This document shows, in pieces, positions 8,292 to 29,945 of a DNA stretch of 64,000 nt. The notes below the pieces were generated by a model. The model was not told the origin of the DNA. It saw nothing but the letters and a program-made list of their open reading frames with translations, and ran no database searches. The stretch comes from an uncultured bacterium (lineage in GTDB: Bacteria; Abyssobacteria; SURF-5), in NCBI GenBank assembly GCA_964607485.1, contig CAZSKP010000014.1, positions 36,085 to 100,084 of the forward strand, in the 5' to 3' direction. The position numbers and the translations under genes were made by a program. The first letter of the stretch is position 1. The number at the start of each line of letters is the position of its first letter.

Positions 8292-9524
8292 ATGCTACGA
8301 GTTCATGAGGTAGAGTTGTCCCAACTGAGGCCTTGGGAGGACAACCCGAGGCTAAACGACCGAGCGGTTGACTCAGTCGTCCGCAGCATCCGCACCTTCG
8401 GCTTCAATGTTCCGATTCTTTGTGACCAGAATCTGACAATCATCGCAGGCCACACGCGCTGGAAAGCCGCGAGGCAAATGGGGCTGGAGGCGGTCCCTGT
8501 GATCGTTCTCAAGATGTCGGACTCGGAGAGGCGAGCATTTTCAGTAGCGGACAACAAGACGGCCGAGATCGCCGACTGGGATTTTTCAAAGCTCCGGGAG
8601 GTTCTGGAAGAATTGAGTTCAGAAAACGTTATTCTGGAGAATCTGGGTTTCAGCGAAGAAGAGTTGCGTCGATTTCTCGGGGACGCGGGTGAGGATGAGG
8701 ATGAACTTCCAGAGGTTGAAGGCGATCCGCAAACGAAAGAAGGTGACCTTATAGTTCTCGGCCCTCATCGTTTGCTGTGTGGTGATTCAAGAGACGCAAG
8801 AATGGTCGATGTTTTGACACAAGGGGAGAAAGTTGACCATGTGTTTGGAGGGCCACCGTATTTCAACCAGCGAGACTACGCCCATTGGGATGAATATTCG
8901 CAATACCTGCTCGACATGCGAAAGATCATCGATAACTGTCGCGACATACTCAAGGACGGTGGTGTGCTCATGTGGAACATAGCAAACGAGTGCGCATCGC
9001 ATCGCGATCACACGAGCCACCATTCCATATTGATGGAGGAATCGGGATTACGTTATTTGGATACCATCATATGGTCAAAGCAAGGTGCCAATTACGCCAT
9101 CCCAAGGAATTTTCATATTCGGCGCAATCGCTGTTACTATCCAGATCTCAAATGGGAAGCGCTACTTGTATTCCAGAAATCGGGCGATATGCCAAGAATG
9201 ACGCATGAGGGCGTTGAGTACATGTCGGAGTACCACACTGATGTCTGGGAGATACCGGCCGTCACGAATCAACTGGAAAAATACGGACATCCAGCTGTGT
9301 GTCCCGTGGAAATACCATACCGTTCTCTCCAGGCCTACACCGGAAGTAAAGCAAGTGTCTTTGAGCCTTTCGGCGGCTCCGGGACAACCTTGATTGCGGC
9401 CGAGAAAGCGTCACGGCGTGCATTTGTTATGGAAAGAGATCCCTTTTACTGTGATATAATTACTAAACGCTGGGGAAATATGACAGAAGAAAAGGCAAAT
9501 CGACTGCACATCGTCCTATCATAG
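8292..9524 (+). CDS. ParB/Srx N-terminal domain fused to a beta-class N4/N6 DNA methyltransferase
   Basis: NPR, FGFNVPI, IIAGHTR, ADNK (ParB-N); HRLLCGDS; motif IV variant GPPY precedes motif I FEPFGGSGTT. Confidence 0.88.
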   Translation: MLRVHEVELSQLRPWEDNPRLNDRAVDSVVRSIRTFGFNVPILCDQNLTIIAGHTRWKAARQMGLEAVPVIVLKMSDSERRAFSVADNKTAEIADWDFSKLREVLEELSSENVILENLGFSEEELRRFLGDAGEDEDELPEVEGDPQTKEGDLIVLGPHRLLCGDSRDARMVDVLTQGEKVDHVFGGPPYFNQRDYAHWDEYSQYLLDMRKIIDNCRDILKDGGVLMWNIANECASHRDHTSHHSILMEESGLRYLDTIIWSKQGANYAIPRNFHIRRNRCYYPDLKWEALLVFQKSGDMPRMTHEGVEYMSEYHTDVWEIPAVTNQLEKYGHPAVCPVEIPYRSLQAYTGSKASVFEPFGGSGTTLIAAEKASRRAFVMERDPFYCDIITKRWGNMTEEKANRLHIVLS

Positions 9525-9540
9525 CGGGAGGCATGCGAGA

Positions 9541-10710
9541 ATGCCACATGAGATTCGGGAACTTTTGGTAAAGACAGATGCACCGGAGCCGTCGCTTCCG
9601 GCCGAGTACCAACCAGTTCGGCCGGAAGGGTTTGACATCGCGCGGATCGTCCTGGCCAAAGGAAGCCTGAGCACGCCCGAGCGCAAGCGCTTTGTTGAAC
9701 GTATCTGCACTCTTTACCCGTCAGCGTCACTTATCGATCGCTCGAATCTCCCACACAACCGAGTCGATCTCGCCGAGGCCGACCCAGTCGCGCTCCATAA
9801 CGAGGGGAAACGAACGCTTGTTCTTGGTGAACTCAAGAGCGCAGTGCGCAAGAGCGAGGAAGAAGGCAACACCTGTCCCAACTACTGGCACTTCTCCGTG
9901 TACGGCTACTGCTTCTATGGTTGTTCTTATTGTTACCTATCCGGCACACGCGGCATCTGGAACTCGCCGACGGTCAAGATATATGTCAATCTGCCGGAGA
10001 TCCTTGCGAGAATCGACCGCGTCGCAAACCGCTTTAAGCATCCAACAGCGTTCTACCACGGCAAGCTTCAAGACGGTCTGGCGCTTGATCCGCTTACAGC
10101 CTACTCAACAGTTTTGGTTCCCTTCTTTGCACAGCACCCATTCGCCCGACAGATAATACTCACCAAGAGCGACGCTACTGGAAGACTTCTCGACCTGGAT
10201 CATAACGGCCGCACGATACTTTCCTGGAGCCTCAATCCGCCGGAGATTGCTGAACGATTCGAAGCGAACGTCCCTTCGATAGAAGCACGGATCACGGCAA
10301 TGCAAAAGGTCTCGGAGACAGGCTACACCGTACGCGCAGTCATCATGCCGCTGATCCCGGTTCCTGGCTGGCGGGAAAAGTATGATCGATTCATTCGCGA
10401 TTTGCTCTCGCGCATGCCGATCCAACGTCTCACACTCGGCGGGATCTGCAGCTACAAGAATGCAGTGAGACTTATGGAGCAAAAGCTCGGCACAGAGAAT
10501 GCAATCTCCAACCACATAGTCAACGATAAAGCAGGCGACGGCCGCGCGCGTTATGATCCTGCGCTTCGGGTCCGCATGTATATGCATCTGCTTCGAACAG
10601 CGAAAGAAATGCAGCCGGACCTTGAGTTCGCGCTCTGCCTTGAGGACCAGGGCGTTTGGAGAACAGTTAACGAAGAAGTGCGTTTGGGGAGCTGTAACTG
10701 CATTCTGTAG
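9541..10710 (+). CDS. Spore photoproduct lyase-like radical SAM protein
   Basis: CFYGCSYCYL (CxxxCxxC), LTKS, SWSLNP, late ALCLE motif typical of SPL-like proteins. Confidence 0.8.
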   Translation: MPHEIRELLVKTDAPEPSLPAEYQPVRPEGFDIARIVLAKGSLSTPERKRFVERICTLYPSASLIDRSNLPHNRVDLAEADPVALHNEGKRTLVLGELKSAVRKSEEEGNTCPNYWHFSVYGYCFYGCSYCYLSGTRGIWNSPTVKIYVNLPEILARIDRVANRFKHPTAFYHGKLQDGLALDPLTAYSTVLVPFFAQHPFARQIILTKSDATGRLLDLDHNGRTILSWSLNPPEIAERFEANVPSIEARITAMQKVSETGYTVRAVIMPLIPVPGWREKYDRFIRDLLSRMPIQRLTLGGICSYKNAVRLMEQKLGTENAISNHIVNDKAGDGRARYDPALRVRMYMHLLRTAKEMQPDLEFALCLEDQGVWRTVNEEVRLGSCNCIL

Positions 10711-17002: not shown

Positions 17003-18226
17003 CTAAGGCCCAATGTCACCAATTTCCTGTTCCCTTTCTTTGGCCCACTCAATTTGAGAATCCTTGATTCTGGCAGCGACTGTTTCTGCCGCCAAGCGAT
17101 GGCCTTCCGGCGACCAATGCGGGTCATTTTTCAGGAAGAGAGAAAAGGGTTCGGGATGACCACGGAAGATTGGGGTAAGATCTATGCATGGAACGTCCAG
17201 GGCGGCGCATACCTCCGCCAGACGTTTTGAGGGGCGGTCCCAGTCGATATCCTCTGACTCCGGATCCAACCCTGCATATCTGATACTGATGTCGAATATT
17301 TCCCTATCCGCATCCTCTTTTTTTGGAACGTAGAGCACGATTAAGCGTCCTCCACCTTCCATTGCCGATTCCTTCATGCGTGAAACCAAGAGACGCACCA
17401 CGTCCCAAGCAAGGTCCATCTCAGGAGAGGGAGGACCATAGATGTCCACTATCGAAAAATCCATTGCGTCTTTCTTTGCAGGCCCCACTTGAGAAGCATC
17501 ATCAGAAGGCTGATGCCTTGCCCTCAAAGCATTCGCCCGCCGTTGTAACTCGCGTTTGTCCTTCAGAATCCTCAGCCGGTACTCAATGAATCCGAATAGC
17601 CAGCTGTTATGACGAAACCACTGGGTTATCGGCGAACTGAGCACTTTCTTGACGGGTCGATTTCCTATCCGTAAGGTACCGTCCTCTGCAATCACGGCCA
17701 CGGGGCGCGTGCCCTGTTGGTCATCGAAGTTATCCCTGAGGTCGTTCCAGACAAAGGCAAGCATGGTCAGGTCGGGCTTATATCGCACGCCTTCCATCTG
17801 GAGACGCACTAATTCCTGCACAGTGCTATAACCGCTGACTCCCAGGTTGATGGTCTGAGTGTCAGGAATCAATTCCTGAAGAATCGTGGAAAATGTATCT
17901 TCGTTATCCACTCCGAATCCCCACATGAAACTGTCACCCAGCACAACGATGCGTCGGGTTCCGAGAGGCTTTGCGAAATCTTTCTCGCTGTCCCGGAGCC
18001 CCCGGCTGTTGTTAGCTACATGCACGTCGAATCCTCCCGGAAGAAAGAAGCGCGCATTAATATTGGGCAAACCCACCCACCCTGCATCAGGGTCGCTGCG
18101 GTGCAACTTCGCCGTCGAGATGACCATTATCCTGGGCTTCACAAGTCGTATGGCCCCTTCCAATATCAACAGGACAAGAATCGTGCTGATGACAACCAAC
18201 GAAAGACGTTCCACCCACTGTCTCAT
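17003..18226 (-). CDS. Membrane-anchored SGNH/GDSL hydrolase or acyltransferase-family protein
   Basis: N-terminal TM helix, NSRGLRD, VLGDSFMWG, NLGVSGYS, WND, DPHWSPEGH. Confidence 0.88.
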   Translation of the reverse strand: MRQWVERLSLVVISTILVLLILEGAIRLVKPRIMVISTAKLHRSDPDAGWVGLPNINARFFLPGGFDVHVANNSRGLRDSEKDFAKPLGTRRIVVLGDSFMWGFGVDNEDTFSTILQELIPDTQTINLGVSGYSTVQELVRLQMEGVRYKPDLTMLAFVWNDLRDNFDDQQGTRPVAVIAEDGTLRIGNRPVKKVLSSPITQWFRHNSWLFGFIEYRLRILKDKRELQRRANALRARHQPSDDASQVGPAKKDAMDFSIVDIYGPPSPEMDLAWDVVRLLVSRMKESAMEGGGRLIVLYVPKKEDADREIFDISIRYAGLDPESEDIDWDRPSKRLAEVCAALDVPCIDLTPIFRGHPEPFSLFLKNDPHWSPEGHRLAAETVAARIKDSQIEWAKEREQEIGDIGP

Positions 18227-18315
18227 AAGCTACGCTATCGTTCTTGTGTCGGTTAGTGGAAAGGATGTGCTTTTACCGATGATTATTATTGATATTACCG
18301 TCGCCATGAGCCTGC

Positions 18316-20175
18316 CTAATCCAACTCGAAGTCCTCTTTCCAATCGTGTGTTTCCTCCCACGTCGGCTGGGACGATTTGTCGAAGAGGTAATTCTCCATC
18401 ACGAGGTAATCCATTTCCGTCCGCATGAAACAACGGTAGGCTTCCTCGGGAGTGCACACGATGGGCTCGCCGCGCACATTAAAACTCGTATTGATCAGTA
18501 CCGGGCAGCCCGTGTGTTTCTTGAAGGTATGAACAAGTTCCCAATAGCGTTCGTTGGTCTCACGATTCACGGTCTGTATTCGCGCCGAGTAATCGATGTG
18601 TGTGACGGCCGGGATGTCGGAGCGGCGGTAATAGAGGCGCTCGAAAAGCGGCAGGTCGTGGTAACCATTCGGCAATGGGTTGAGGCGGTCGGCCCTTACC
18701 GGCGCGACGAGGAGCATGTACGGCGAAGGTCGGTCAAGCTCGAAATAGTCTGCGCAATCTTCTTCAAGCACGGAGGGCGCGAATGGCCGGAAACCCTCAC
18801 GATACTTGATCTTCAGGTTGAGTCGCTTTTGCATGTCGGGGTCTCGCGGGTCCCCGAGGATGCTACGATTGCCCAATGCCCTTGGGCCGTATTCCATGCG
18901 CCCCTGGAACCATCCGACAACGTTCCCTGCCGCCAAGAGCCGGGCTACTTCCTCACAGAGGAGTCGAAAATCCGGGTAATGGCGGTACGGCGCTTCGAAC
19001 CTTCGGGCAACGCGCACGATGTCGGCTGAGCCATACTCGGGCCCCAGCAAAGAGCCTTGCATTTCGTCATGTCCGGGTGTGGGACAGCGCTTCTCATCTT
19101 TCCATATGTGCCAGGCCGCCAGCGCAGCCCCCAATGCGCCGCCGGCGTCGCCCGCAGCCGGCTGAACCCACAGATTCTTGAAAAGCCCGCGGCGCAGCAG
19201 CTTCCCATTGGCGACACAGTTGAGCGTCACTCCTCCCGCGAGCGCGATATTATCCGAGCCAGTCAGTTCAAGTGCCGTGGATGCGAGTCGCAGAAAGATT
19301 TCCTCCGTCACGTGCTGTATTGCCAACGCGAGGTCCATGTAGGACTGAGTGAGTTGGCCATTCAAGGGTCGTGGCGGAATGCCAAACAGTGCCTCCCATC
19401 GGTCGTCGTGACACATGGTGAGACCGGTGGCATAGTTGAAGTACTCCATGTTCAACAGTATTGACCCGTCTTCGCGCAAGTCAACCAATTCGTCCAGAAT
19501 CTGTTGCCGATACCGTTTGGTCCGGTCACTCTCCGGGTTGCCATAGGGGGCGAGGCCCATGAGCTTATACTCGCCGCTGTTGACTCTGAAACCGCAGTAG
19601 TAAGTAAATGCAGAGTAAAGGAGCCCGAGAGAATGAGGAAAATGCAATTCCTTGAGAATCCGAATCTCTTTTCCGCTGCCCTTCCCGATAGTCGTCGTGG
19701 CCCACTCTCCTACCCCGTCGATTGTCAAGATTGCCGCTTCCTCAAACGGTGAAGGGAAAAAAGCACTGGCTGCGTGGGAAAGGTGGTGCTCGGGGAATAA
19801 TAGCGTTGGGTTGCCGTCACCCAGCTTGGCCAACTCCTTCTTCAAGAGCTGGCGCATGAGCAGTTTCTCCTTGATCCAAACGGGCATGGCCGAAAGGAAG
19901 CTCTGCAGCCCCTTTGGAGAAAAGGCGTGATAGGTTTCAAGCAGTCGTTCGAATTTGATGTAGGGCTTATCGTAGAACGCGACGGCGGTCAATTCGGCAG
20001 GAGTGACATTCCCCTCCGCGAGCACGTAAGCTGCCGCTCGAGTGGGAAATGAGGCATCGTACTTCTTCCTGCTGAAGCGCTCCTCCTGGGCTGCGGCTAT
20101 GATGTTGCCGTCAATGATCAATGCGGCAGCGCTGTCGTGATAGTAGGCCGATATGCCCAAAATTGCTGATCGCAT
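18316..20175 (-). CDS. O-carbamoyltransferase (NodU/CmcH/SxtI family)
   Basis: LGISAYYHDSAA, QEERFSRKK, HHLSHAASAF, DGVGE, EYKLMGLA, GPRALGNRSIL, LINTSFNVRGEPIV. Confidence 0.95.
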   Translation of the reverse strand: MRSAILGISAYYHDSAAALIIDGNIIAAAQEERFSRKKYDASFPTRAAAYVLAEGNVTPAELTAVAFYDKPYIKFERLLETYHAFSPKGLQSFLSAMPVWIKEKLLMRQLLKKELAKLGDGNPTLLFPEHHLSHAASAFFPSPFEEAAILTIDGVGEWATTTIGKGSGKEIRILKELHFPHSLGLLYSAFTYYCGFRVNSGEYKLMGLAPYGNPESDRTKRYRQQILDELVDLREDGSILLNMEYFNYATGLTMCHDDRWEALFGIPPRPLNGQLTQSYMDLALAIQHVTEEIFLRLASTALELTGSDNIALAGGVTLNCVANGKLLRRGLFKNLWVQPAAGDAGGALGAALAAWHIWKDEKRCPTPGHDEMQGSLLGPEYGSADIVRVARRFEAPYRHYPDFRLLCEEVARLLAAGNVVGWFQGRMEYGPRALGNRSILGDPRDPDMQKRLNLKIKYREGFRPFAPSVLEEDCADYFELDRPSPYMLLVAPVRADRLNPLPNGYHDLPLFERLYYRRSDIPAVTHIDYSARIQTVNRETNERYWELVHTFKKHTGCPVLINTSFNVRGEPIVCTPEEAYRCFMRTEMDYLVMENYLFDKSSQPTWEETHDWKEDFELD

Positions 20176-20316
20176 CAGCCACTTAGTTCTTCCCGCACGC
20201 TTCGAGCCGTGATTGCTTCCGGGCTGTTCCACATTGTTGCCGATCTTGAGGTACAAAAAGACAGGGGGATTTTCCTGGGGCAAGTACCACTGGTTCTCTA
20301 TAAGCGGAAGGCGGCA

Positions 20317-20466
20317 TCAGAATATTGTGTAAATAAAGGGGGCAATCGCCGAGCCACTGGTGAGGAGAATCAAGGCGCCGAACAGCAACAGACTCAGAAT
20401 GATCGGGAGCAACCAGAACTTCTTTCTGACTCTCAGATATCCCCACAAATCGCTCAGGAGCTCCAT
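20317..20466 (-). CDS. DUF5989 / SxtK-like small membrane protein (49 aa, absent from the ORF track)
   Basis: MELLSDLWGYLRVRKKFWLLPIILSLLLFGALILLTSGSAIAPFIYTIF; RKKxWLxP and APFIYT signature. Confidence 0.9.
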   Translation of the reverse strand: MELLSDLWGYLRVRKKFWLLPIILSLLLFGALILLTSGSAIAPFIYTIF

Positions 20467-20488
20467 AATCTTTTCCCACTTGGAGAAA

Positions 20489-20884
20489 CTAATAAGGTCG
20501 TTCGATATCTTCGGGTCCGTATCTATGGTCGCGCGTGGTAAAGACAGAGGTCTTTCCCTTTTTCCACTGATTCTTCCGCATAAGGTCGGAACCGCCCATC
20601 CGCCGCACCGCCCCCAGCGGAGTTACCACTCCGTAAAAGAGCACTGTCAGGACCACTCTTGAGACTATCGTACCCATCAGATGGGCAATACCAAACCAGA
20701 CTTTCGCCGGATAGAAGAAAAGGTTTGGCCACACCATATCAGCTACCAGGAGCAGCATCGCCAGAAGCAAGAACCTTGGATGCTCTCCGAAGTAAGCCAC
20801 GAAAAGGCAAATCAGGACTAATGCCATGCCTGTGTCTTTAGACTGGTCCCGACTTGTGATTTCGCTCGTGTTCCCTTTTCTCAT
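20489..20884 (-). CDS. SxtJ-family membrane protein
   Basis: KDTGMALVLI, WFGIAHLMG..VSRVVLT.LFY.VVTP.G, C-terminal DIERPY; adjacent to DUF5989 and carbamoyltransferase genes. Confidence 0.85.
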   Translation of the reverse strand: MRKGNTSEITSRDQSKDTGMALVLICLFVAYFGEHPRFLLLAMLLLVADMVWPNLFFYPAKVWFGIAHLMGTIVSRVVLTVLFYGVVTPLGAVRRMGGSDLMRKNQWKKGKTSVFTTRDHRYGPEDIERPY

Positions 20885-20926
20885 GAAAAGAAAAGTTTCC
20901 CCCCTTAGCCGAGGATTTGCGCGTAT

Positions 20927-20956
20927 ATTATATAGAGAGCTTCTGAAGCCTGTCAA
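20927..20956 (-). promoter_or_regulatory. Putative sigma-70 promoter for the sxtJ/K/I-like operon
   Basis: TTGACA-18 nt-TATAAT on the minus strand. Confidence 0.6.
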
Positions 20957-21215: not shown

Positions 21216-24200
21216 TCAGCTCGATTCATCCTGCGTCCTCGGGCTTGCATTCGAGCCGGGCGACAGCTCCTCTTTCCACTGCAGATACGTGCTGTAATAC
21301 TGCAGGATTTCCGATTCACATCCAGAGTCAACGGACGTTCCCTCAGGCTCGATGATCTCAATCGCTCCGGCGAATACCTCTCCACTGGAGCCGTTGATGC
21401 TGATGGCGTCCGTCTCCCCGAACGCAAGCGAATCGGCCTGCAAAATCCTCGCGTGCTCGTCGATGATCAGCCCCTGACACCCGGTGATGCACGGCTTGCC
21501 CATGCGACGAGAGTTGATTGCCGCGTGGGAGGTCATCCCGCCCTCTCGCGTGAGCACGCCCTTCGAGGATGCAATCCCGCCGATGTCCCTTGGAGTCGTG
21601 CGGTTCGCTACCAGGATAATGTCCTCGCCTGCCTGGGTTCGGATGATGGCGTCCTCACTGTTGAACGCGAGGTGGCCGGTGGCCACTCCCGGCGATGCGG
21701 GATTTCCCTTCGCAAGCAAATGTCTCGATGCGCTCGGGTCGAACATGGGGAGAAAAAGCTGTCTGAGGCCGGTCTCGTCGAGCCTCCCGACGGCTGTCTG
21801 CTGGTCAATGATACCTTCGTTGGCAAGCTCGACTGCAATTCTCAAAGCCGCCAAATCCGTCCGCTTCGCCGGCCGCGTCTGGAGCAGATAGAGCGCATTC
21901 CCCTCGACCGTGAACTCGATGTCTTGCACGTCGCGCAAGTGCGCCTCGAGCTTGCGTGCCACCGCCTCGAGCTCGCGAAACGTTTCCGGAAAACGATGTT
22001 CCAGCGAGAAAGAGGGGTCTGTGCCATCGCGTGCCGAGCTCAGCGGCAGCGGTTCGCCGTGGCCGCACACCAGCACCTCGCCTTGTGAACGCGGCAGATA
22101 CTCTCCGAAAATTTGGCGGTCTCCGGTTACGGGATTGCGCGAGAAGACTACTCCCGAGCACGATTCCGGGCAGAGGTTGCCAAACACCATCTGCTGGATG
22201 GTGGCCGCCGTGCAGAACTGGTGGGGGATGTTGAAAATCTGGCGGTAAGTGATGGCGCTGTCGCTCTGCCATGACAAGAATATCGCTCTGAGCGCCCCCA
22301 TGAGCTGTTCTCGCGGGTCCTGCGGGAGGGGAGCGCCGATGGCGTCCGCAACTCTCTTCAACAGGGTCTTCACCATCCGTTTCATCTCTTCCGCGGACGC
22401 GCACGCCGGATTACTCTCGGCAAGAGCCGGCTCGCGCGTGTCGGAATAGCCCATGACGGAGGAGGCGTACTTTGATATCAGCCTGAAATAGCACTCGTAC
22501 GCAAACAGAGAGTCACCGGTGATATGGGCCAAACCTTCGACTGTTTCGTCGTTAAGCCCAATATTCAAGACGGTGTCCAACATCCCCGGCATTGAAACGC
22601 ACGCGCCCGCCCGCACCGCCAGCAGAAGCGGCTTCTCCGGAGAGCCGAGCCTGCACCCGGTGATTTCTTCCAGCTCCTCGATGCTCTCGGACAGGAGCTT
22701 CTGGGTGCGGTTACACAAGACATGGCCGTCGGAGAAGAACATGTTGCACACTTTCGATGTGAGCGTAAACCCGGGAGGCACATTCAGCCCCAGCCGGGCC
22801 ATTTCGGCAAGGAATGCGCCTTTCTCCCCCAGTATCGGGTAATGCGCCACCTGCCCCTCGGCTGCTCCCGGCCGGAAGAAATAGGCGAGTTTGGCCGGGT
22901 CAACCTTTTTAGAGATTGCGTCCAGGTCGCGCCTGATTCGGGCCACCTTAATGGCGGAGATTTCCCTGATGGGCGGATGACGCACGCGCTTCATGAACTC
23001 GGCGATGCGCGCGCGAGAGAAATTGAGCAGCCTCAGCGTAAGCTCGGAAAGATGTTGCAGCGTCGTCTCGCGGAATAGGCCGTCCACGAACGCGCTCGCC
23101 GCCTCGTCGGCGTGCGGAATCTGGCGTGACGAAAGAATTTCGCGCGTGGTATCGTAATAGGTCTGAACGATCTTGTCCGTCGCCGCTCCTATCTCGGCGT
23201 TGATACGCTCGACGATCGAATAGACGGTATAGAAGTTGAGGTCGCTCGATTCCTTGAGCGCGAGGAGCTGCCTGCCGTAGTCTCTGATTTTCTTCGTGCA
23301 CTGTCCCTTGGCGCGCACGCTCAAAATCATCGAATGCATCACATCGATGGCCAGCGGAAGCGCCTCGACCGTGATGTCGGCCAGAATCACATTGCTCGCC
23401 TCGCCGTAGATAATGTAGCCGAGACGTTCGAGTGTCAGGTCGAGCCAGATGGCCTCCAGCGTTACCTCGATTGTCCGCGTTTGAACCAGCGGATTCTTGA
23501 TTGTGTCGCGCAGCGATATCCGCACCTCGCCGAGCATCAAGGCGGCGTTGAGGATGTCCCGCGCTCGCAGATACCCGATGAATCGCTCGAGCGATTCGAA
23601 CAGATGGGGGAAGAAGAGAGAAACCGCCTCGCGCCGCCATGAATCGATGAGGGCATGTATCTCCTCCGGCTCCTTTTTGTCTGCGCTTGTCAGCCCGGCC
23701 CTCAAGTTCTCGAAAAGTCGTTTGACATTGGGATTCTCTGCGTCGAGAATCGATTCTTCGAGCAGATTGACGAGAATCTCCACATTGGTTTCAATCAACG
23801 ATCTGTTCCGCTTCTCGATACTGCCGAGGAGATACCGAAGCTGGCTGTTGACCCGGGGCGATACAATCTGCGAAATGTTGCTGAGGAGTTGGTATATGTC
23901 TTCTACCCGGTCTTCGATGTTCCCCGGATGGGGCTCAAAAACATTTGCGAGTTCCCTCTCCAGCTCTTTCAACAAGCCGAGTATCGGCTGGAATTTGTCG
24001 GGGCGGTACTGAAACACTTTCTGATACTTGTTTATTGCGGTCAGAGGCTCGGAGTCGGCGTTCTCCACATAGGCGAGGAGCGCTCGCACGAGGTCGAGGT
24101 TGCGCGGAGAGAGCTTGCTGTGGATTTCTCCCCTGATATCCTCGGTGATGGGGGATGGGAACGCGTATTCTATCTCTTCGGCGAGCCCGCGCAACGCCCG

Positions 24201-24530
24201 AATCTCGTCTTGCGACGCGCCGAAGAAGGGCAGGCTCTTGACCAGTTGCCGCACGAGCAGATACATGTCGTCCGAGGACAGGTCTATGCACATCAGTTCT
24301 TCGAGCTTCTCGCGCATCTGCTTCGAGAGCGCAATGCTATCGGCCTTCTCGGCGAAGCCGCTGCCCCGGTAGCCGGCCAGGCTGCCCGTCTCAACGCGCA
24401 GATTCACGTTGAGCGCCTTGATGAGGTCGGTGCTGCCGAGCGGGTCGGAGACAATTCGCTCGATGCAGGCGAACACCTTCTCCCAGCTATTGATGGGCTC
24501 AAACTCTGATTCTTTGACCTCAACACTCAT
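21216..24530 (-). CDS. PPDK-derived dikinase: ~550-aa helical N-terminal region + ATP-grasp domain + swivelling phospho-His domain, no pyruvate-binding barrel
   Basis: GEKGAFLAEM, VPPGFT, AVRAG..SMPGMLDTVLN, QQMVFGN, QDIEFT, LQTR, GGMTSHAA; ends soon after the His domain; alternative start at 24560. Confidence 0.85.
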   Translation of the reverse strand: MSVEVKESEFEPINSWEKVFACIERIVSDPLGSTDLIKALNVNLRVETGSLAGYRGSGFAEKADSIALSKQMREKLEELMCIDLSSDDMYLLVRQLVKSLPFFGASQDEIRALRGLAEEIEYAFPSPITEDIRGEIHSKLSPRNLDLVRALLAYVENADSEPLTAINKYQKVFQYRPDKFQPILGLLKELERELANVFEPHPGNIEDRVEDIYQLLSNISQIVSPRVNSQLRYLLGSIEKRNRSLIETNVEILVNLLEESILDAENPNVKRLFENLRAGLTSADKKEPEEIHALIDSWRREAVSLFFPHLFESLERFIGYLRARDILNAALMLGEVRISLRDTIKNPLVQTRTIEVTLEAIWLDLTLERLGYIIYGEASNVILADITVEALPLAIDVMHSMILSVRAKGQCTKKIRDYGRQLLALKESSDLNFYTVYSIVERINAEIGAATDKIVQTYYDTTREILSSRQIPHADEAASAFVDGLFRETTLQHLSELTLRLLNFSRARIAEFMKRVRHPPIREISAIKVARIRRDLDAISKKVDPAKLAYFFRPGAAEGQVAHYPILGEKGAFLAEMARLGLNVPPGFTLTSKVCNMFFSDGHVLCNRTQKLLSESIEELEEITGCRLGSPEKPLLLAVRAGACVSMPGMLDTVLNIGLNDETVEGLAHITGDSLFAYECYFRLISKYASSVMGYSDTREPALAESNPACASAEEMKRMVKTLLKRVADAIGAPLPQDPREQLMGALRAIFLSWQSDSAITYRQIFNIPHQFCTAATIQQMVFGNLCPESCSGVVFSRNPVTGDRQIFGEYLPRSQGEVLVCGHGEPLPLSSARDGTDPSFSLEHRFPETFRELEAVARKLEAHLRDVQDIEFTVEGNALYLLQTRPAKRTDLAALRIAVELANEGIIDQQTAVGRLDETGLRQLFLPMFDPSASRHLLAKGNPASPGVATGHLAFNSEDAIIRTQAGEDIILVANRTTPRDIGGIASSKGVLTREGGMTSHAAINSRRMGKPCITGCQGLIIDEHARILQADSLAFGETDAISINGSSGEVFAGAIEIIEPEGTSVDSGCESEILQYYSTYLQWKEELSPGSNASPRTQDESS

Positions 24531-24549
24531 TCTGCCGTCAGATGCTCCC

Positions 24550-27500
24550 TCAGCGTTCATCCAGCCCGTCGAGCGCCGACAGCGTCCGCGTCGCCAGATA
24601 CTTCAAGGCCGCGCCGCCGCCCGTACACAAGGTAAACTTCTCCTTCGCCGCCTCGATTCCGCCCATGCGACGATTCACGGCGGCAACTCCGTCGCCGCCG
24701 ACCACGAGCTTTGCCTTGGCCGGGCACTGCGCGATGGCGTCCACAATCCAGTTTGTTCCCTCAGCGAATTGCTCCACTTCGTAGAGCCCGACGGTTCCGT
24801 TGTAGATGATCGTGCCTGCTTCAGCGAGAATGGCTTGAATCTCGCCCGCCGTCCTTGTGGCGGCGCCGTCGCTCGCGGCCGCAATATCAAACAGGTATGA
24901 ACCGAAAGGAATGCTTTCCGCATCAAGAACGCGCGAAGACACTCGCAGGAGCGGCCTGAACTTGTCGGGCAGCTCGAAGGCAACGTGCACGTCCTTGGGA
25001 ATCACGACCTTGACGTCGAATTCAGCCGCCAGCTCTATCAGCCTGTGGGCGGCCGCCACCTCGCGCTCGACCTCGAGCACGTCGGCACCCGAGAGCGAGT
25101 TGCCGGCCGACAGGCCGCTCGCAACGAGAAAGGCCGGGGATGCCGTCACAAATGTCTGAATGGCGCCATGGCGTATCATTGCTTCGACCGCGGGAATCTT
25201 TTCGCTTATCTTTACGCCGCTGACGAAAGCGACGACGGGCCGGCTGGCCTCGCGCAGTATTCCATCGAGAGTTTCAAGCTCGCTCCCCGTCAGCAAACCC
25301 AACACTTTATGCCCGTGGACGAGGTTCATCAGCGGCAGAAACGAGGCGTGAAGCCCGCGATGGGAGGCGCCGAACGCGCTGTTGACATAGTTAACCCGTC
25401 GCTGCGAGTCCGGGTCGAGATGGCCGAAGAGCGTGTCAAAAATGGCCTTCGCGAAATGCCGATTGCCCGACTCCTCTCCTTCGTGGAAACGCAGATTCTC
25501 GAGATAGAGAACCTGACCGGGCCCGAGGCCGCGCGCGAGTGACGCTGTCTGGGCATCGACGACGCCGGGCGCCATGAAGAAATCCCTCTCGGGAACAAGG
25601 ACATTCCGGTCCCGCAGTATTTCGGCGAACCGCTGGCCTGCAATCCTCAAACTGAACAGGTCAATGACTTGACCGTCCTCCGTCTGGAGGAACTGGAAAT
25701 CTCTCTTGCGCCCATTGTGCGACATCACAATGACTCTCGCGTTTCGCTTGATGAGGTGCGCAATGTCGTCCGCGCTTGCAAATATCCGATGGTCATCGAT
25801 GATTGAAGGTCTTATGGTGTTGGTGGCCGGGTCATAAAGCGGCTCCACGACGTTATGGTCAACCCGTACCATCCAGTACATGCCGTCGAACGCTTCGTCA
25901 GGCAGGTCGAGAAGCGAGGATTTCTTTGAATAGGGACTCTCGGATTTCGGGGGCACGTCGGGCACATAGGGAAATTGTGTGAAATCCTTCTGGTACGCCT
26001 TTTCCGCAGGCAGCATCACTTCTTCGAGGAATTCGACGTACATTTTCGACGGTCGCCACTCGTTTTCGTACCAGCCGATCAACTGGATGACGGTCATTGG
26101 CTCGCCGCTGGGAGCCACGAAATGGACGACCTCGACGTTCCTCTTACACAGCGTTACGCCCGCCTCCGCAAGCTCTCGCAGCAGTCTGATTTGCGTTGAG
26201 CGGTCGATTTCCTTGTCCCTGAGGAACTGAAATCTCTGATGGTCGCCCTCGCGGCATGCATCCTCCAGCACTTTGGCGGCAGCCTCGATATCATCAATCG
26301 TGTAATGTCCTCGGAGCACATAGGTGGGAGCCATGATGGAAACAGTTTCTATCGGGAACCGTATCGAGTACACCGGCGTGTGTGAAGTTCCCGCGGCGTC
26401 CACGAGAGCGGTGCTGGCGCTTGCGCCCGACGTCGTCTCGAAGATGTTTCCTGTCGCGTCGGTGCCGCGCCGTATGTCTTTCTTGTACTCTATCGGGTCG
26501 ATTATGTCGGGGCCGACGTGCTCGCCGGTGAGCGCGTGATAGGTCGGCCCGATTCCCTCGAGCACCATTGCGCCGGCAACCTCGTAGAATCCGTTCCAGT
26601 CAAACCGGCCCTCCTCGGCGCCGCGGTGCATTGCCACCTCGACGAGACGGTTCAGATTGGCCAGACATCCAGTCGTGCACGAGGCCGGGGAAAGAAAGTA
26701 ATGCTTCGCGGGATCATACTTGTGGTCATTGATGTGCCTTATGAAGGTGGCATCGCGCCACTCGTCTTCCTTGCTCGAGCCGGGCGCGGTGATCATTGCC
26801 CGCAGGGCGCCGGCGCGCCTGTGGCGGTTGACGCCGTCCAAGTTGTTGAAGCGGCCAGTCGCATCTATGGCGACGTGTACAGGCATCCCGGCCAGTATGA
26901 AGCATTTCCACGGATAGTTCGCCGGGTCTCTGAATACCGGGTGGCTGAACACGAGCGATCGCTTCCCGTCCAGCTCAATCCAATCACGACCGTATTGAAC
27001 GGTGCCCGGATAGCGACCCTGAACATAATCCTTCTCGTTCATCAGCTCGGCGAGGCGCTTGGCATCGGGGCCGCCCACCGCGATGACGCGCAGCGTGTCG
27101 CTCTTCGAGGCTATGCGGAACGTGCAGCTTCCCATGCGGCCGCCCGGAGCGTTGATGGTGATGTTGTACACTCCCGGCAGTGAGGGATACAGTATCGAGT
27201 TCGGCCTGCTGATGGTCTGCCATCGCTGTCGCTGTCCATCATACTGGTCGATCGACAGAAAGGTCACCCGGTCGAAGAGCTCCGTCTTCTCGTTGTAATC
27301 CAGGTGATGAACCCGGATGGTCGCCCGGAGCTTGTCGCCGTATTCGTATACATCATGTATCAGTATTTCCCAGTCGTATTCGCGGCTGAGCCGGAGCGCG
27401 TATTTGCGAAGCGCATCGTAGTATCGCCCCATCACATGATGCACATTCTCAAGCGACGCGGCGGTGAGCAGCGAAGTCGCGTACAGCTTGTGCCGGTTCT

Positions 27501-29838
27501 CGTGGAGCGCGACCATCGCGACAGCCTCTCCCGTCTCGTCACGCAAAACCTCCTGCAGGATGATAGGCTGCGACTCGAGGAAGAGCAGCCTCACAGCGTC
27601 CTCGGTCAATTCGCGGTCGGATACGCGGATCGTGCCCGTGCCCCCCATGGAGCCTGCGTACATGCGGGCTCGACGTTTCGTGGCGTGCGCCTGCGTTTTC
27701 TGTTCATACTTCCGGGCAAGACGCGGGATGTGACGCTTTGAAAAGTCGGTCTGTTGAGCGATGTCAAGCTTTGCCCAGTGACGGCTTGCCGCGGGCATAC
27801 CCGGCGTGAATGTGTCAGCCCTCTCTCCGAGCTCTCGCTTAAGAGAATGGCCGGCGATGAGGCGCAGCGCTTCCTCGACATCCGCCACAGCCTCGTCGAG
27901 GAAAAAGGCGATGCTCACCTGGGTGCCGGCATCGTTCTGGCTGACATAGACCTGGTTAGGGTCGAACATAATTCTGGAACTTCCGAAATTGAGATTCGAG
28001 GTCAACTGCACCCACCATTCGGGCAGGCTGAGCACTTCAAGTTCCTGCGCTTTCGCCTTGAAGAGCGAGATTATCCTCTCTCGCGAGAGCCTCGAATCGA
28101 CCACCGCGTTCAAGCGGAGAAGCTTGCCGCGCGGAATATTCGTCTTGAATTCGTTAGTGGCGAGCAGCTTTGTATCATCACCGGCCAGCCCCAGCATCCT
28201 CGCCACACCGGCGAAGCGCTTCGGATTCTTCTTATGGATGACCTGGTACACTCCGGCTACTCTGTATGTTGGCTGGACAACTGCCGGTTCGTCATGCTTC
28301 TCGACAATATCGGCTCCCAGCACAAAGATCTTCCCCATCTCGGAAAGGGCGGATATCCCGAGCGCATACGCAACTTCTTCGGCAGGCATGATGCCGAACG
28401 CGCTTCTTCCTTCAGGGTATTTCTCATTTAAGAGGGAGTGGACGGTCGCATCGTCACTTGTCTGTGTCCGAGCGACAACAAGTTGTGCCCCTTCTTTACG
28501 AATACGCTCCAGTAACTGCGGCTCAATCTTACGAGCGTGATCTTCGCTGATGAGGATATAGTCGATGCCCAAAGCCTTCCAGGGAAGGGACTCAAGAACG
28601 GCCGGCGCTTCGGTCAGGCTCCCGTGATACACACTGATGGCAGATTTCTGTTTGCCGATAGAAAGGAAGCCTTTCTCATCACCCTCGACCTCTTCATAGA
28701 TTCCAAGCTGCGAGTTGTACTTCAGCCACTGCATAATGTCTTTGGCTTTCTGCCCGACAAAGACCACTGCCTCCAGCTCATTGACATACGCGCTGCCGAT
28801 CCTGCGCAGAGCGGCGATAATGTTCTGGTTGTATCCGACAACCGCAATCCGGCGCGGTGCGTTTCCGGGTGAGAGATGCGCCAAGATACGGGAACGAATG
28901 GCCGCAAGATGTCCGGCCTCGAGCTCGAGGAAGGGCGATTCCGAAAGTCTGAACACATCGTAGAATTCATTCATCCCCGGAACAAACTTCGCTAACTCAT
29001 CCAGCGAGCGCTTCCTCTTTTCGGGATCCCTCTGAAAACGATCCAACTGAGCGAGAAGCCTGTCGATTTCGCGAACTTCCGTTACCGGCGCTATCCTCAT
29101 CCCTCGTTGCTCAATCAGTGCACGAACCGCGTCAAGCGAGGGATGGCCCACCTCCTCCATAACGTATGCTTCCTCGGAAAGTTCGGGGGTTTGCTTCTCG
29201 ACTCTTCTCGCCATCGCGGCGAGTGCACCCGACCGAGCCTGCATGTTAAACATGAACGAAGCTGCTTCCGACAGAATTCCTTCAGGCACGTGTCGATGAA
29301 CACTGGGACGATTGAAGTCGTCACAGAACTCGGCGAAAAGATGGTAAACGCCGTCTTCGCCGTCAAATATGTTCGTCCCGTATGCCGCCTTGAACTCCTC
29401 TGCAAGAGCTTCCTCCCCGATTCCTTCCCTCGCCATGAACTCCCGGAGCCCGGAGTGGAGAAGGGGAAAGAGTTGGAGGCGTCGCGCCATCCACTCGACA
29501 CCTTCGTGAACGAGCGTCCGGTTCAATACGCGGCGGCGACGATGCTGAAAGCTTTCGTTCGAGTTTTGAGCGGTTATCTCTGAGCGACAGATCCATTCGA
29601 GGAAGGAGTACGTGTCGAGGACATCGGAATAGATGATTCCCTGATTGTCGGCGAGTGTCGCTATAGGGAATTGTTCGAGGGCTGGTGCGAGATCTATGTC
29701 TTGAAGCGCCGGGTCGGCGCGCGCAGCTGTCTCCACAAGTCGATGAATGTAAGTTGAAGAGGGCCGGTGCAAAATTATCGGTATCTGAGAGAAGCCTTCG
29801 GGACGGGCGAGAAGCTCGGGTGGGCTTGGCAAAAGCAT
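24550..29838 (-). CDS. Giant fusion (~1762 aa): unknown N-domain + degenerate GAPDH-like domain + linker + divergent GAPDH + phosphoglycerate kinase
   Basis: Pseudo-GAPDH (~27850-28860): RIAVVG, LKYNSQLG, LPWKALGID. GAPDH (~26020-27175): INAPGGRMG, IDATG, ITAPG, ASCTTGCL, WYENEW. PGK (24550-~25920): VRVDHNV, SHNGR, LENLRF, AFGASHR, GGDG, TGGGA. ATG 29838 follows GAGGAG. Confidence 0.88.
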   Translation of the reverse strand: MLLPSPPELLARPEGFSQIPIILHRPSSTYIHRLVETAARADPALQDIDLAPALEQFPIATLADNQGIIYSDVLDTYSFLEWICRSEITAQNSNESFQHRRRRVLNRTLVHEGVEWMARRLQLFPLLHSGLREFMAREGIGEEALAEEFKAAYGTNIFDGEDGVYHLFAEFCDDFNRPSVHRHVPEGILSEAASFMFNMQARSGALAAMARRVEKQTPELSEEAYVMEEVGHPSLDAVRALIEQRGMRIAPVTEVREIDRLLAQLDRFQRDPEKRKRSLDELAKFVPGMNEFYDVFRLSESPFLELEAGHLAAIRSRILAHLSPGNAPRRIAVVGYNQNIIAALRRIGSAYVNELEAVVFVGQKAKDIMQWLKYNSQLGIYEEVEGDEKGFLSIGKQKSAISVYHGSLTEAPAVLESLPWKALGIDYILISEDHARKIEPQLLERIRKEGAQLVVARTQTSDDATVHSLLNEKYPEGRSAFGIMPAEEVAYALGISALSEMGKIFVLGADIVEKHDEPAVVQPTYRVAGVYQVIHKKNPKRFAGVARMLGLAGDDTKLLATNEFKTNIPRGKLLRLNAVVDSRLSRERIISLFKAKAQELEVLSLPEWWVQLTSNLNFGSSRIMFDPNQVYVSQNDAGTQVSIAFFLDEAVADVEEALRLIAGHSLKRELGERADTFTPGMPAASRHWAKLDIAQQTDFSKRHIPRLARKYEQKTQAHATKRRARMYAGSMGGTGTIRVSDRELTEDAVRLLFLESQPIILQEVLRDETGEAVAMVALHENRHKLYATSLLTAASLENVHHVMGRYYDALRKYALRLSREYDWEILIHDVYEYGDKLRATIRVHHLDYNEKTELFDRVTFLSIDQYDGQRQRWQTISRPNSILYPSLPGVYNITINAPGGRMGSCTFRIASKSDTLRVIAVGGPDAKRLAELMNEKDYVQGRYPGTVQYGRDWIELDGKRSLVFSHPVFRDPANYPWKCFILAGMPVHVAIDATGRFNNLDGVNRHRRAGALRAMITAPGSSKEDEWRDATFIRHINDHKYDPAKHYFLSPASCTTGCLANLNRLVEVAMHRGAEEGRFDWNGFYEVAGAMVLEGIGPTYHALTGEHVGPDIIDPIEYKKDIRRGTDATGNIFETTSGASASTALVDAAGTSHTPVYSIRFPIETVSIMAPTYVLRGHYTIDDIEAAAKVLEDACREGDHQRFQFLRDKEIDRSTQIRLLRELAEAGVTLCKRNVEVVHFVAPSGEPMTVIQLIGWYENEWRPSKMYVEFLEEVMLPAEKAYQKDFTQFPYVPDVPPKSESPYSKKSSLLDLPDEAFDGMYWMVRVDHNVVEPLYDPATNTIRPSIIDDHRIFASADDIAHLIKRNARVIVMSHNGRKRDFQFLQTEDGQVIDLFSLRIAGQRFAEILRDRNVLVPERDFFMAPGVVDAQTASLARGLGPGQVLYLENLRFHEGEESGNRHFAKAIFDTLFGHLDPDSQRRVNYVNSAFGASHRGLHASFLPLMNLVHGHKVLGLLTGSELETLDGILREASRPVVAFVSGVKISEKIPAVEAMIRHGAIQTFVTASPAFLVASGLSAGNSLSGADVLEVEREVAAAHRLIELAAEFDVKVVIPKDVHVAFELPDKFRPLLRVSSRVLDAESIPFGSYLFDIAAASDGAATRTAGEIQAILAEAGTIIYNGTVGLYEVEQFAEGTNWIVDAIAQCPAKAKLVVGGDGVAAVNRRMGGIEAAKEKFTLCTGGGAALKYLATRTLSALDGLDER

Positions 29839-29945
29839 AATCGCGCTCCTCAGATGTAACACGCCTATACTTTTGGCAGCACAATACTTATGCAATCCGC
29901 GTCACAACCTGAAAGGTGGGAGCGAACAGAATTCAGCCTACGGTA

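Follow-up and report, generated by a model that had tools for sequence, protein, structure and literature searches.

Pyruvate, phosphate dikinase (PPDK) is the textbook example of a swivelling phosphohistidine enzyme, and the pyrophosphate (PPi) economy of anaerobic glycolysis rests on this enzyme and on PPi-dependent phosphofructokinase (PPi-PFK). Rifampin phosphotransferase (RPH) and glucan, water dikinase (GWD) are precedents for the gain of new acceptor domains by the dikinase chassis. GWD and phosphoglucan, water dikinase (PWD) (EC 2.7.9.4/2.7.9.5) combine this chassis with a non-pyruvate acceptor and have a large unassigned region ahead of the catalytic modules; in GWD the His domain precedes the ATP-grasp domain, and carbohydrate-binding modules (CBM45/CBM20) are present. 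Here we describe a gene on the minus strand at positions 21216..24530 of a 64,000-nucleotide stretch (the window) of contig CAZSKP010000014.1, from an uncultured bacterium of the Abyssobacteria (GTDB lineage SURF-5; assembly GCA_964607485.1). An earlier note on this DNA had proposed that the gene encodes a GWD-like enzyme built on a PPDK chassis. Our analysis makes it very probable that the product is instead a conserved PPDK paralog without the C-terminal barrel, functionally tied to paralogs of PGK and GAPDH, and not a GWD.

The longest open reading frame (ORF) on the minus strand runs from 21216 to 24560 and encodes 1114 aa, free of internal stops. The probable start is the ATG at 24530 (M11), which coincides with the starts of the relatives and gives a protein of 1104 aa, the same length as in database record P0003. 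The gene is taken as 21216-24530 because of the GAGGGAG sequence that follows the upstream stop, the 1104-aa database record and the common start of the relatives, and the coordinates of the earlier note are thereby confirmed. Residues are numbered here from the ATG at 24560 (the longest ORF), so that the paralog corresponds to residues 11-1114 of P0001 plus the stop.

The C-terminal half of the paralog is of the PPDK type. It consists of an ATP-grasp domain (residues ~557-905; 21846..22892) followed by a phosphohistidine swivel domain (residues ~948-1072; 21345..21719), i.e. the domain order of PPDK. All motifs on which the earlier note was based (GEKG, VRAG, QDIEF, LQTR and GGMTSHAA) were found: LGEKG is located at 577, VRAG...SMPGMLDT at 649-663, QDIEFT at 879-884, LQTR at 893, and GGMTSHAA, with the catalytic His1012 (codon 21525-21527), at 1007-1014, while MVFGN also lies in the ATP-grasp domain. 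Alignment with four canonical PPDKs, one of which is the genome's own, showed that LGEKG, VRAG..SMPGMLDT, MVFGN, DVQDIEFT, LQTRPAKRT and GGMTSHAA/His1012 are all retained. In a Pfam scan of the whole protein PPDK_N (PF01326) was matched with an E-value of 5.5e-36 and PEP-utilizers (PF00391) with 4.8e-18. Residues 9-514 of the PPDK structure 1kbl align to residues 568-1072 of the paralog (E 8.7e-118), and residues 1-556 are not touched by any of the 20 matches in the PDB. The PPDK equivalog model TIGR01828 aligns over residues 557-1076 with profile positions 2-514 of 865; the score of 537.7 bits is below the curated equivalog cut-off of 843.45.

The part of PPDK that is lacking is the C-terminal barrel (PEP-utilizers_C, PF02896), for which the Pfam scan gave no match in the paralog. 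The C-terminal tail (residues 1073-1114; 21219..21344) contains the helix YLQWKEE, which aligns with the linker helix that directly precedes barrel strand 1 in canonical PPDKs, and the chain ends here (LQWKEEL at 1093-1099), at the point where the barrel would begin, as had been noted before. Only 259 bp separate the stop codon from the next ORF, and a promoter on the same strand (TTGACA-18-TATAAT, 20956..20927), with a perfect 12/12 match to the sigma-70 consensus, starts the next transcription unit and marks the end of the operon. This gap and the promoter leave too little space for a barrel domain, in agreement with the earlier note.

The earlier note also considered that orthologs might retain the barrel, in which case this copy would be a truncated PPDK. 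A word-indexed protein search returned 29 proteins, namely 22 close homologs, five canonical PPDKs and two weak others. The close homologs share 63-100% identity with the paralog (19 are full-length, of 1019-1118 aa, and three are partial), and PF02896 was found in none of the 22. The five canonical, barrel-bearing PPDKs align to the C-terminal half alone, with 40-44% identity. The genome of the window, which is 97.5% complete, encodes a separate canonical PPDK with barrel on another contig, as well as PTS enzyme I, and has adjacent canonical GAPDH and PGK genes. With the barrel absent from all close homologs and a canonical PPDK encoded elsewhere in the genome, the paralog is, judged by sequence, a conserved barrel-less derivative of PPDK and not a broken PPDK. 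In a tree of 19 PPDK halves (the garbled P0036 was left out), the paralog family and a PGK-fused family described below each form a clade (100/100) and the canonical PPDKs are set apart from them (92/95), without resolution of the deeper branching. A related-locus search with P0036 as query was uninformative, as it returned 80 actinobacterial canonical PPDK loci. The database names of the relatives, 'pyruvate, phosphate dikinase' or 'phosphohistidine swiveling domain-containing protein', do not reflect this difference, and the first of these is corrected by our finding.

Two further sets of dikinase-like genes came to light during the analysis. The window's genome contains three tandem PEP-synthase/RPH-like genes (contig C2:148284-155519), with open frames of 875-899 aa and strong PPDK_N matches. 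At another locus (L172 5701-9769), a PPDK-like protein of ~1006 aa without barrel (PPDK_N and swivel) is encoded divergently to a 298-aa TIM-barrel protein of the PEP-mutase/isocitrate-lyase family; in this single case a barrel could possibly be supplied in trans.

The catalytic half is preceded by an all-alpha N-terminal domain of ~545 residues (the N-domain; residues 11-555, 22896..24530). An AlphaFold2 model of residues 11-560, built on an alignment of 25 sequences, has 24 helices and no strands (pLDDT 84.3, pTM 0.79), in accordance with the helical region of ~550 aa that had been predicted earlier. Neither Pfam nor NCBIfam scans assigned the N-domain to a family, a profile search against PDB sequences gave zero matches, and Foldseek of the model against the PDB gave nothing at E <= 0.001 (best TM <= 0.19). 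VIA-align found nothing specific, and an Atlas search produced PPDK-family leads alone, all below 0.9. The N-domain is rare, with 23 phmmer/HMMER matches in all among 1.84 billion representative proteins; a profile search among longer proteins returned just 19 close family members. Eight distant full-length matches were scanned and proved to be PPDK-type or unassigned, the N-domain preceding a PPDK half in all except one fragment of 428 aa.

Comparison of 11 sequences from both N-domain families (those of the paralog and of the PGK-fused proteins), which share ~20% identity between families, revealed 32 invariant columns, of which 14 are Arg, Lys, His, Asp or Glu, concentrated at domain residues 94-143. 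The block of highest conservation, DIRGEIHSKLSPRNL (residues 141-155; 24096..24140), is common to both families and contains the invariant His147 (codon 24120-24122) within the pattern D-[IL]-R-x-E-[IV]-H-x-K-L-S-P-R. The invariant charged pattern looks like a functional site. The four blocks in which a resemblance to GWD/PWD had been seen by eye (101-113/120-127, 141-165, 372-384 and 490-512) do exist, and hold many of the conserved columns of the N-domain family. Some larger or more remote relatives were also encountered. P0056, of 2092 aa, has a further N-terminal extension of ~1100 aa ahead of the N-domain and PPDK half, which has no Pfam family and is unlike the large upstream protein described next. 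Two loci from another phylum (L171 6792-13176 and L173 4154-10711) encode proteins of 1531-1549 aa in which a long N-region and a single block with weak likeness to the N-domain accompany PPDK_N, and in which Pfam finds no swivel; in each case the next gene encodes an activator with GAF and sigma-54 domains.

Directly upstream of the paralog, on the same strand, lies a gene (24550..29838) for a protein of 1762 aa counted from M20 (the longest ORF, of 1781 aa, starts with TTG at 29895), which we refer to as the giant. Its stop codon (24550-24552) and the ATG of the paralog are separated by a 19-nt spacer (24531..24549) with GAGGGAG, which implies that the two genes form a single operon with the paralog as second gene. 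The C-terminal module of the giant (residues 1336-1781; 24553..25890) matches PGK (PF00162, E 1.2e-58). The residues of the 3-phosphoglycerate (3-PG) site are kept and a 9-residue insert follows HLGxP, while the glycine-rich nucleotide-phosphate loops are remodelled: in all eight giants with this region GGGMAYTF is replaced by A-[SA]-P with a 3-residue gap, and GGGDT by GDGV[TA]. The preceding module (residues 912-1290; 26026..27162) is GAPDH-like (Gp_dh_N E 2.3e-11; TIGR01534 E 3.2e-33) and retains the SCTT cysteine, the catalytic His, the RxP arginine and WYENEW, with an altered NAD motif. The N-terminal half (27196..29838) has no family match in the scans and was modelled by AlphaFold2 with low confidence (pLDDT 56.1) as a helical region with a second, cryptic GAPDH-like fold; the top Foldseek matches of this model are GAPDH structures (E about 2e-9, 355-395 columns), so that the giant probably holds two GAPDH-like folds. 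The N-half shows no relation to the N-domain of the paralog in hhalign (probability 0.2%). About ten relatives of the giant were found, of 1715-1762 aa.

The pairing of giant and paralog recurs. The N-domain is present in six of the 11 genomes of the GTDB phylum to which the window's genome belongs, and the N-half of the giant in three of these six carriers, each time immediately upstream (e.g. loci L001 and L043). A related-locus search with the giant alone found SURF_17 only. Scanning metagenomes with the N-domain alignment yielded 41 loci, which were mapped by BLASTP against domain references, and one contig (L127) again has the giant followed by the paralog; L128, which is cut short, and the fragmentary L129 were excluded from the count of pairs. 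A metagenome scan with P0035 as query found nothing. Canonical PPDK genes also occur next to the paralog in some metagenomes: a barrel-bearing PPDK is located divergently upstream of the paralog in L125 (4831-7734) and L126 (877-3780), and a canonical PPDK fragment (L127 2-580) flanks the giant–paralog pair.

A second and more direct connection to PGK is found in distant relatives of the paralog. In P0049 (1413 aa) and P0051 (1372 aa), the swivel domain is followed by a PGK domain (PF00162), at the position of the lost barrel. Full-length fusions of this kind were found in five species genomes: an uncultured Myxococcia metagenome-assembled genome (MAG), a Rifleibacterium MAG, an Ozemobacteraceae MAG and two further MAGs. 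Among 36 fused-type metagenome loci, 17 are cut by contig ends, and 18 of the 19 complete ORFs consist of N-domain, PPDK half and PGK. The other one (L144 178-2790) stops after 871 aa without PGK, though the contig continues; a natural form without PGK, a frameshift and an assembly error are possible explanations. The N-domains of the paralog and the fused family are homologous by hhalign (probability 97.8%, E 1.3e-12, 409 columns). All five fusion-bearing genomes also encode an ordinary PGK (~415 aa), which makes the fused PGK an additional, dedicated one. In 18 fused PGK modules compared, the Arg of HLGRP, which binds the 3-PG phosphate, is replaced by Glu in 14 and by Asp in 4, Ala stands in place of the His after ENLRF in every case, and a 9-residue insert follows HLGxP at the same site as in the PGK-like modules of the giants. 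A 12-row PGK tree unites the fused modules in one clade (100/99). The genes that neighbour the fused forms are not conserved and do not resemble the giant.

Gene order and fusions thus link the paralog to GAPDH and PGK, and not to glucan metabolism. The kinship with GWD/PWD and the glucan acceptor put forward in the earlier note found no support in the searches made, none of which was a direct comparison with a GWD or PWD sequence or structure, in view of the PPDK domain order, the TIGR01828 score of 537.7 bits, and the lack of both a carbohydrate-binding module and a conserved glucan neighbour. Pfam and NCBIfam scans, in which CBM45 or CBM20 would have been the expected modules, gave PPDK_N, PEP-utilizers and dikinase models only; in the NCBIfam comparison every water dikinase model is much more distant from the catalytic half than PPDK is. 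No glucan genes were found as conserved neighbours or beside the gene, and no GWD-like protein was recognised among the 23 phmmer matches of the N-domain, of which the eight distant full-length ones were scanned, nor in the profile searches of PDB sequences and of longer proteins or in the Atlas search. A possible resemblance of the invariant His block to the middle region of plant GWD we take as a lead and not as evidence. What does hold of the earlier proposal is its more general part, a dikinase on a PPDK chassis that serves an acceptor other than pyruvate, which is in line with the absence of the barrel in 22 of 22 close homologs and with the genome having its own canonical PPDK.

We propose that the paralog acts as a half-dikinase that exchanges phosphate at the step between 3-PG and 1,3-bisphosphoglycerate (1,3-BPG), glycolysis' other ATP-yielding step. 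The enzyme would carry out the first two partial reactions of PPDK, ATP + Pi + E-His <-> AMP + PPi + E-His~P, after which the swivel would exchange its phosphoryl group at the 3-PG/1,3-BPG step with the help of the PGK-like module. The GAPDH-like module would feed or drain this step, and the N-domain would be a platform or second site that replaces the role of the barrel. The net reaction would be 1,3-BPG + AMP + PPi <-> 3-PG + ATP + Pi, or a close variant. The free energies of hydrolysis are about -49 kJ/mol for 1,3-BPG, about -62 for PEP and about -46 for ATP to AMP + PPi, and these textbook values would place the net reaction near equilibrium, as for PPDK, and make it feasible. This specific reaction, with 3-PG/1,3-BPG as the presumed acceptor, is put forward as a tentative possibility. 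Taken as a whole, i.e. the general link to PGK/GAPDH together with the specific reaction, the explanation is the best we can offer, albeit one that falls a little short of being probable. In a stronger and rather unlikely version, the giant and paralog would form a channelled machine, a PPi-linked '3-phosphoglycerate, phosphate dikinase' working via His1012, which would replace substrate-level phosphorylation at the PGK step and in which the N-domain would take over the docking role of the barrel.

Several observations weigh against the proposed half-dikinase. Firstly, in three of the six carriers (92-97% complete) two queries failed to find the giant, and the only PGK is canonical, so that the protein must be able to function without a dedicated PGK module; their copies are flanked by a histidine kinase/receiver run in L004, by non-coding DNA at a contig end in L002 and by a radical-SAM gene in L003. 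Secondly, the nucleotide site is apparently complete in about 14-15 of the 18 fused PGKs, which would be more in keeping with an ordinary PGK working with ADP/ATP than with one that a phosphohistidine serves. Thirdly, the PGK of the giant is on a very long branch outside the fused PGK clade in the 12-row tree; PGK may have been recruited twice, or the tree may fail here, and the associations in giant and fusion may differ in mechanism. Finally, the N-domain, by its invariant charged residues, may itself be the acceptor site for another substrate.

The last of these points leads to the alternative that survives best, namely that the N-domain is an acceptor-binding catalytic domain for a non-triose substrate, such as a small anionic metabolite, a polymer or a glucan, with the PGK and GAPDH modules as accessories for local supply or drain of ATP in some lineages. 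The presence of the N-domain in every member, including three genomes without giant or extra PGK, agrees with this, as do the 32 invariant columns at ~20% identity, with many Arg, Lys, His, Asp and Glu residues clustered in domain residues 94-143, the full nucleotide site in most fused PGK modules, and the precedent of RPH and GWD. However, Pfam, NCBIfam, fold and PDB sequence searches offered no clue to a substrate, neither a carbohydrate-binding module nor nearby glucan genes were found, and the fusion places PGK precisely at the position of the barrel. Moreover, a dikinase yields AMP, which PGK could not recycle, so that a local supply of ATP would be stoichiometrically awkward. We consider this alternative possible and well short of probable, and its glucan version highly improbable.

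A second alternative, which appears improbable, is a role in signalling or regulation by phosphotransfer, in which the PPDK half would sense ATP, AMP, PPi and Pi, and His~P would signal to a response regulator or to the giant and so control flux. Single-domain response regulators and dCache histidine kinases are indeed encoded directly upstream in two of the six carriers (locus L004 and genome G014), the runs of regulators lying upstream of the paralog or of the giant–paralog pair at L004 24-9978, L043 19172-19570 and L044 679-2876. Both examined loci of the remote relatives from another phylum, whose matches to an N-domain block are weak (E 1e-7 to 3e-4), precede GAF-sigma54 activators, and the predicted helical bundles of the N-domain would also suit such a role. 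Nevertheless, the two upstream regulators share only 36% identity, and with at least 100 receiver-domain matches in the genome the adjacency may be due to chance. Pfam and NCBIfam gave no match to Hpt or another signalling family in the paralog, and no regulator adjoins the window's own copy. The weakest alternative, a decaying and functionless truncated copy of PPDK with a chance N-terminal extension, could account for the absent barrel and the low TIGR01828 score (537.7 against 843.45) but has a negligible probability, given an architecture common to 22 close homologs (63-100% identity), intact catalytic motifs, a frame without stops, and an N-domain whose conservation extends over about 545 residues and which has a homolog in a second family.

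A PPDK half without a pyruvate site that is linked to PGK and GAPDH by fusion in a sister family and by an operon in the window suggests that the 1,3-BPG/3-PG node has a phosphoryl-transfer or control step that is so far undescribed. If catalytic, such a step would alter the bookkeeping of ATP yield in anaerobes of the deep subsurface and of digesters, and bring a new class of acceptor into the dikinase superfamily; a regulatory one would couple adenylate and PPi status to triose-phosphate flux in a new way. The channelled PPi-linked machine, if true, would be a second PPDK-like energy-saving step in the glycolysis or gluconeogenesis of energy-starved anaerobes. In either case the giant and paralog are a directly testable pair of genes. 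A dikinase superfamily member with a new partner module of this kind may be an apparently undescribed arrangement: no description of such a protein, fusion or operon was found among the listings returned by a literature search. The available parts of a review on PGK (PMC7729029) describe PGK fusions with TIM, PAS and CNB domains and none with a dikinase, and those of the Abyssubacteria genome paper (PMC6121073) do not mention dikinase, PGK or GAPDH.

The further surroundings of the operon in the window are not conserved. Upstream are genes for a class-III aminotransferase and a TetR regulator, and downstream, past the promoter, those for SxtJ-like, carbamoyltransferase and SGNH proteins. The sequencing runs listed for this DNA include no RNA run; the four DNA runs derive from a single study and may include its source. 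The promoter at 20956..20927 precedes the latter set (SxtJ-like, carbamoyltransferase and SGNH-AlgX-like; 17003-20956), and as the listed TTG start of the SxtJ-like ORF falls within the promoter, its true start must be further downstream. Elsewhere in the window (8292-10710, plus strand), a ParB-N-domain/N6-N4 DNA methylase gene is followed by a radical SAM gene of the spore-photoproduct-lyase family; this region has a G+C content of about 0.50 versus about 0.58, and may be a mobile or defence-related islet.

Compared with known systems, the paralog is most readily set beside PPDK itself (EC 2.7.9.1; Clostridium symbiosum 1KBL/1DIK), with which it shares the order of ATP-grasp and swivel and the hallmark motifs. 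The TIM barrel (PF02896) of PPDK is absent from the paralog, whereas the helical N-domain of ~545 aa is present in the paralog only. Rifampin phosphotransferase and PEP synthase (RPH, PpsA) likewise combine an ATP-grasp and a swivel His with a swapped acceptor domain, but differ in domain order (ATP-grasp, acceptor domain, swivel) and lineage, and their models match the paralog only weakly and partially (RPH NF041857, 46.6 bits versus a cut-off of 999; PEP synthase NF005057, 103.6 bits versus 598). From GWD/PWD, as these are generally described, the paralog differs by its PPDK domain order, the absence of a carbohydrate-binding module, a catalytic half closer to PPDK, and its GAPDH/PGK context. 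The short actinobacterial barrel-less 'PPDK' (NF004531/PRK05878), the function of which is to our knowledge also unknown, has ATP-grasp and swivel domains without barrel as well, and its model matches residues 575-1069 of the paralog with 427.2 bits, below the cut-off of 456; that family (profile length 534) lacks the helical N-domain. The fusion proteins of about 1390-1480 aa from the Myxococcia and Rifleibacterium/Ozemobacteraceae MAGs and from metagenomes share with the paralog a homologous N-domain, the ATP-grasp, the swivel and the His block, and likewise have no barrel. The N-domain of the paralog is ~80 residues longer than theirs, and the PGK that follows the swivel in cis in the fusion proteins has its counterpart, in the window, in the PGK-like module at the end of the upstream GAPDH-like protein.

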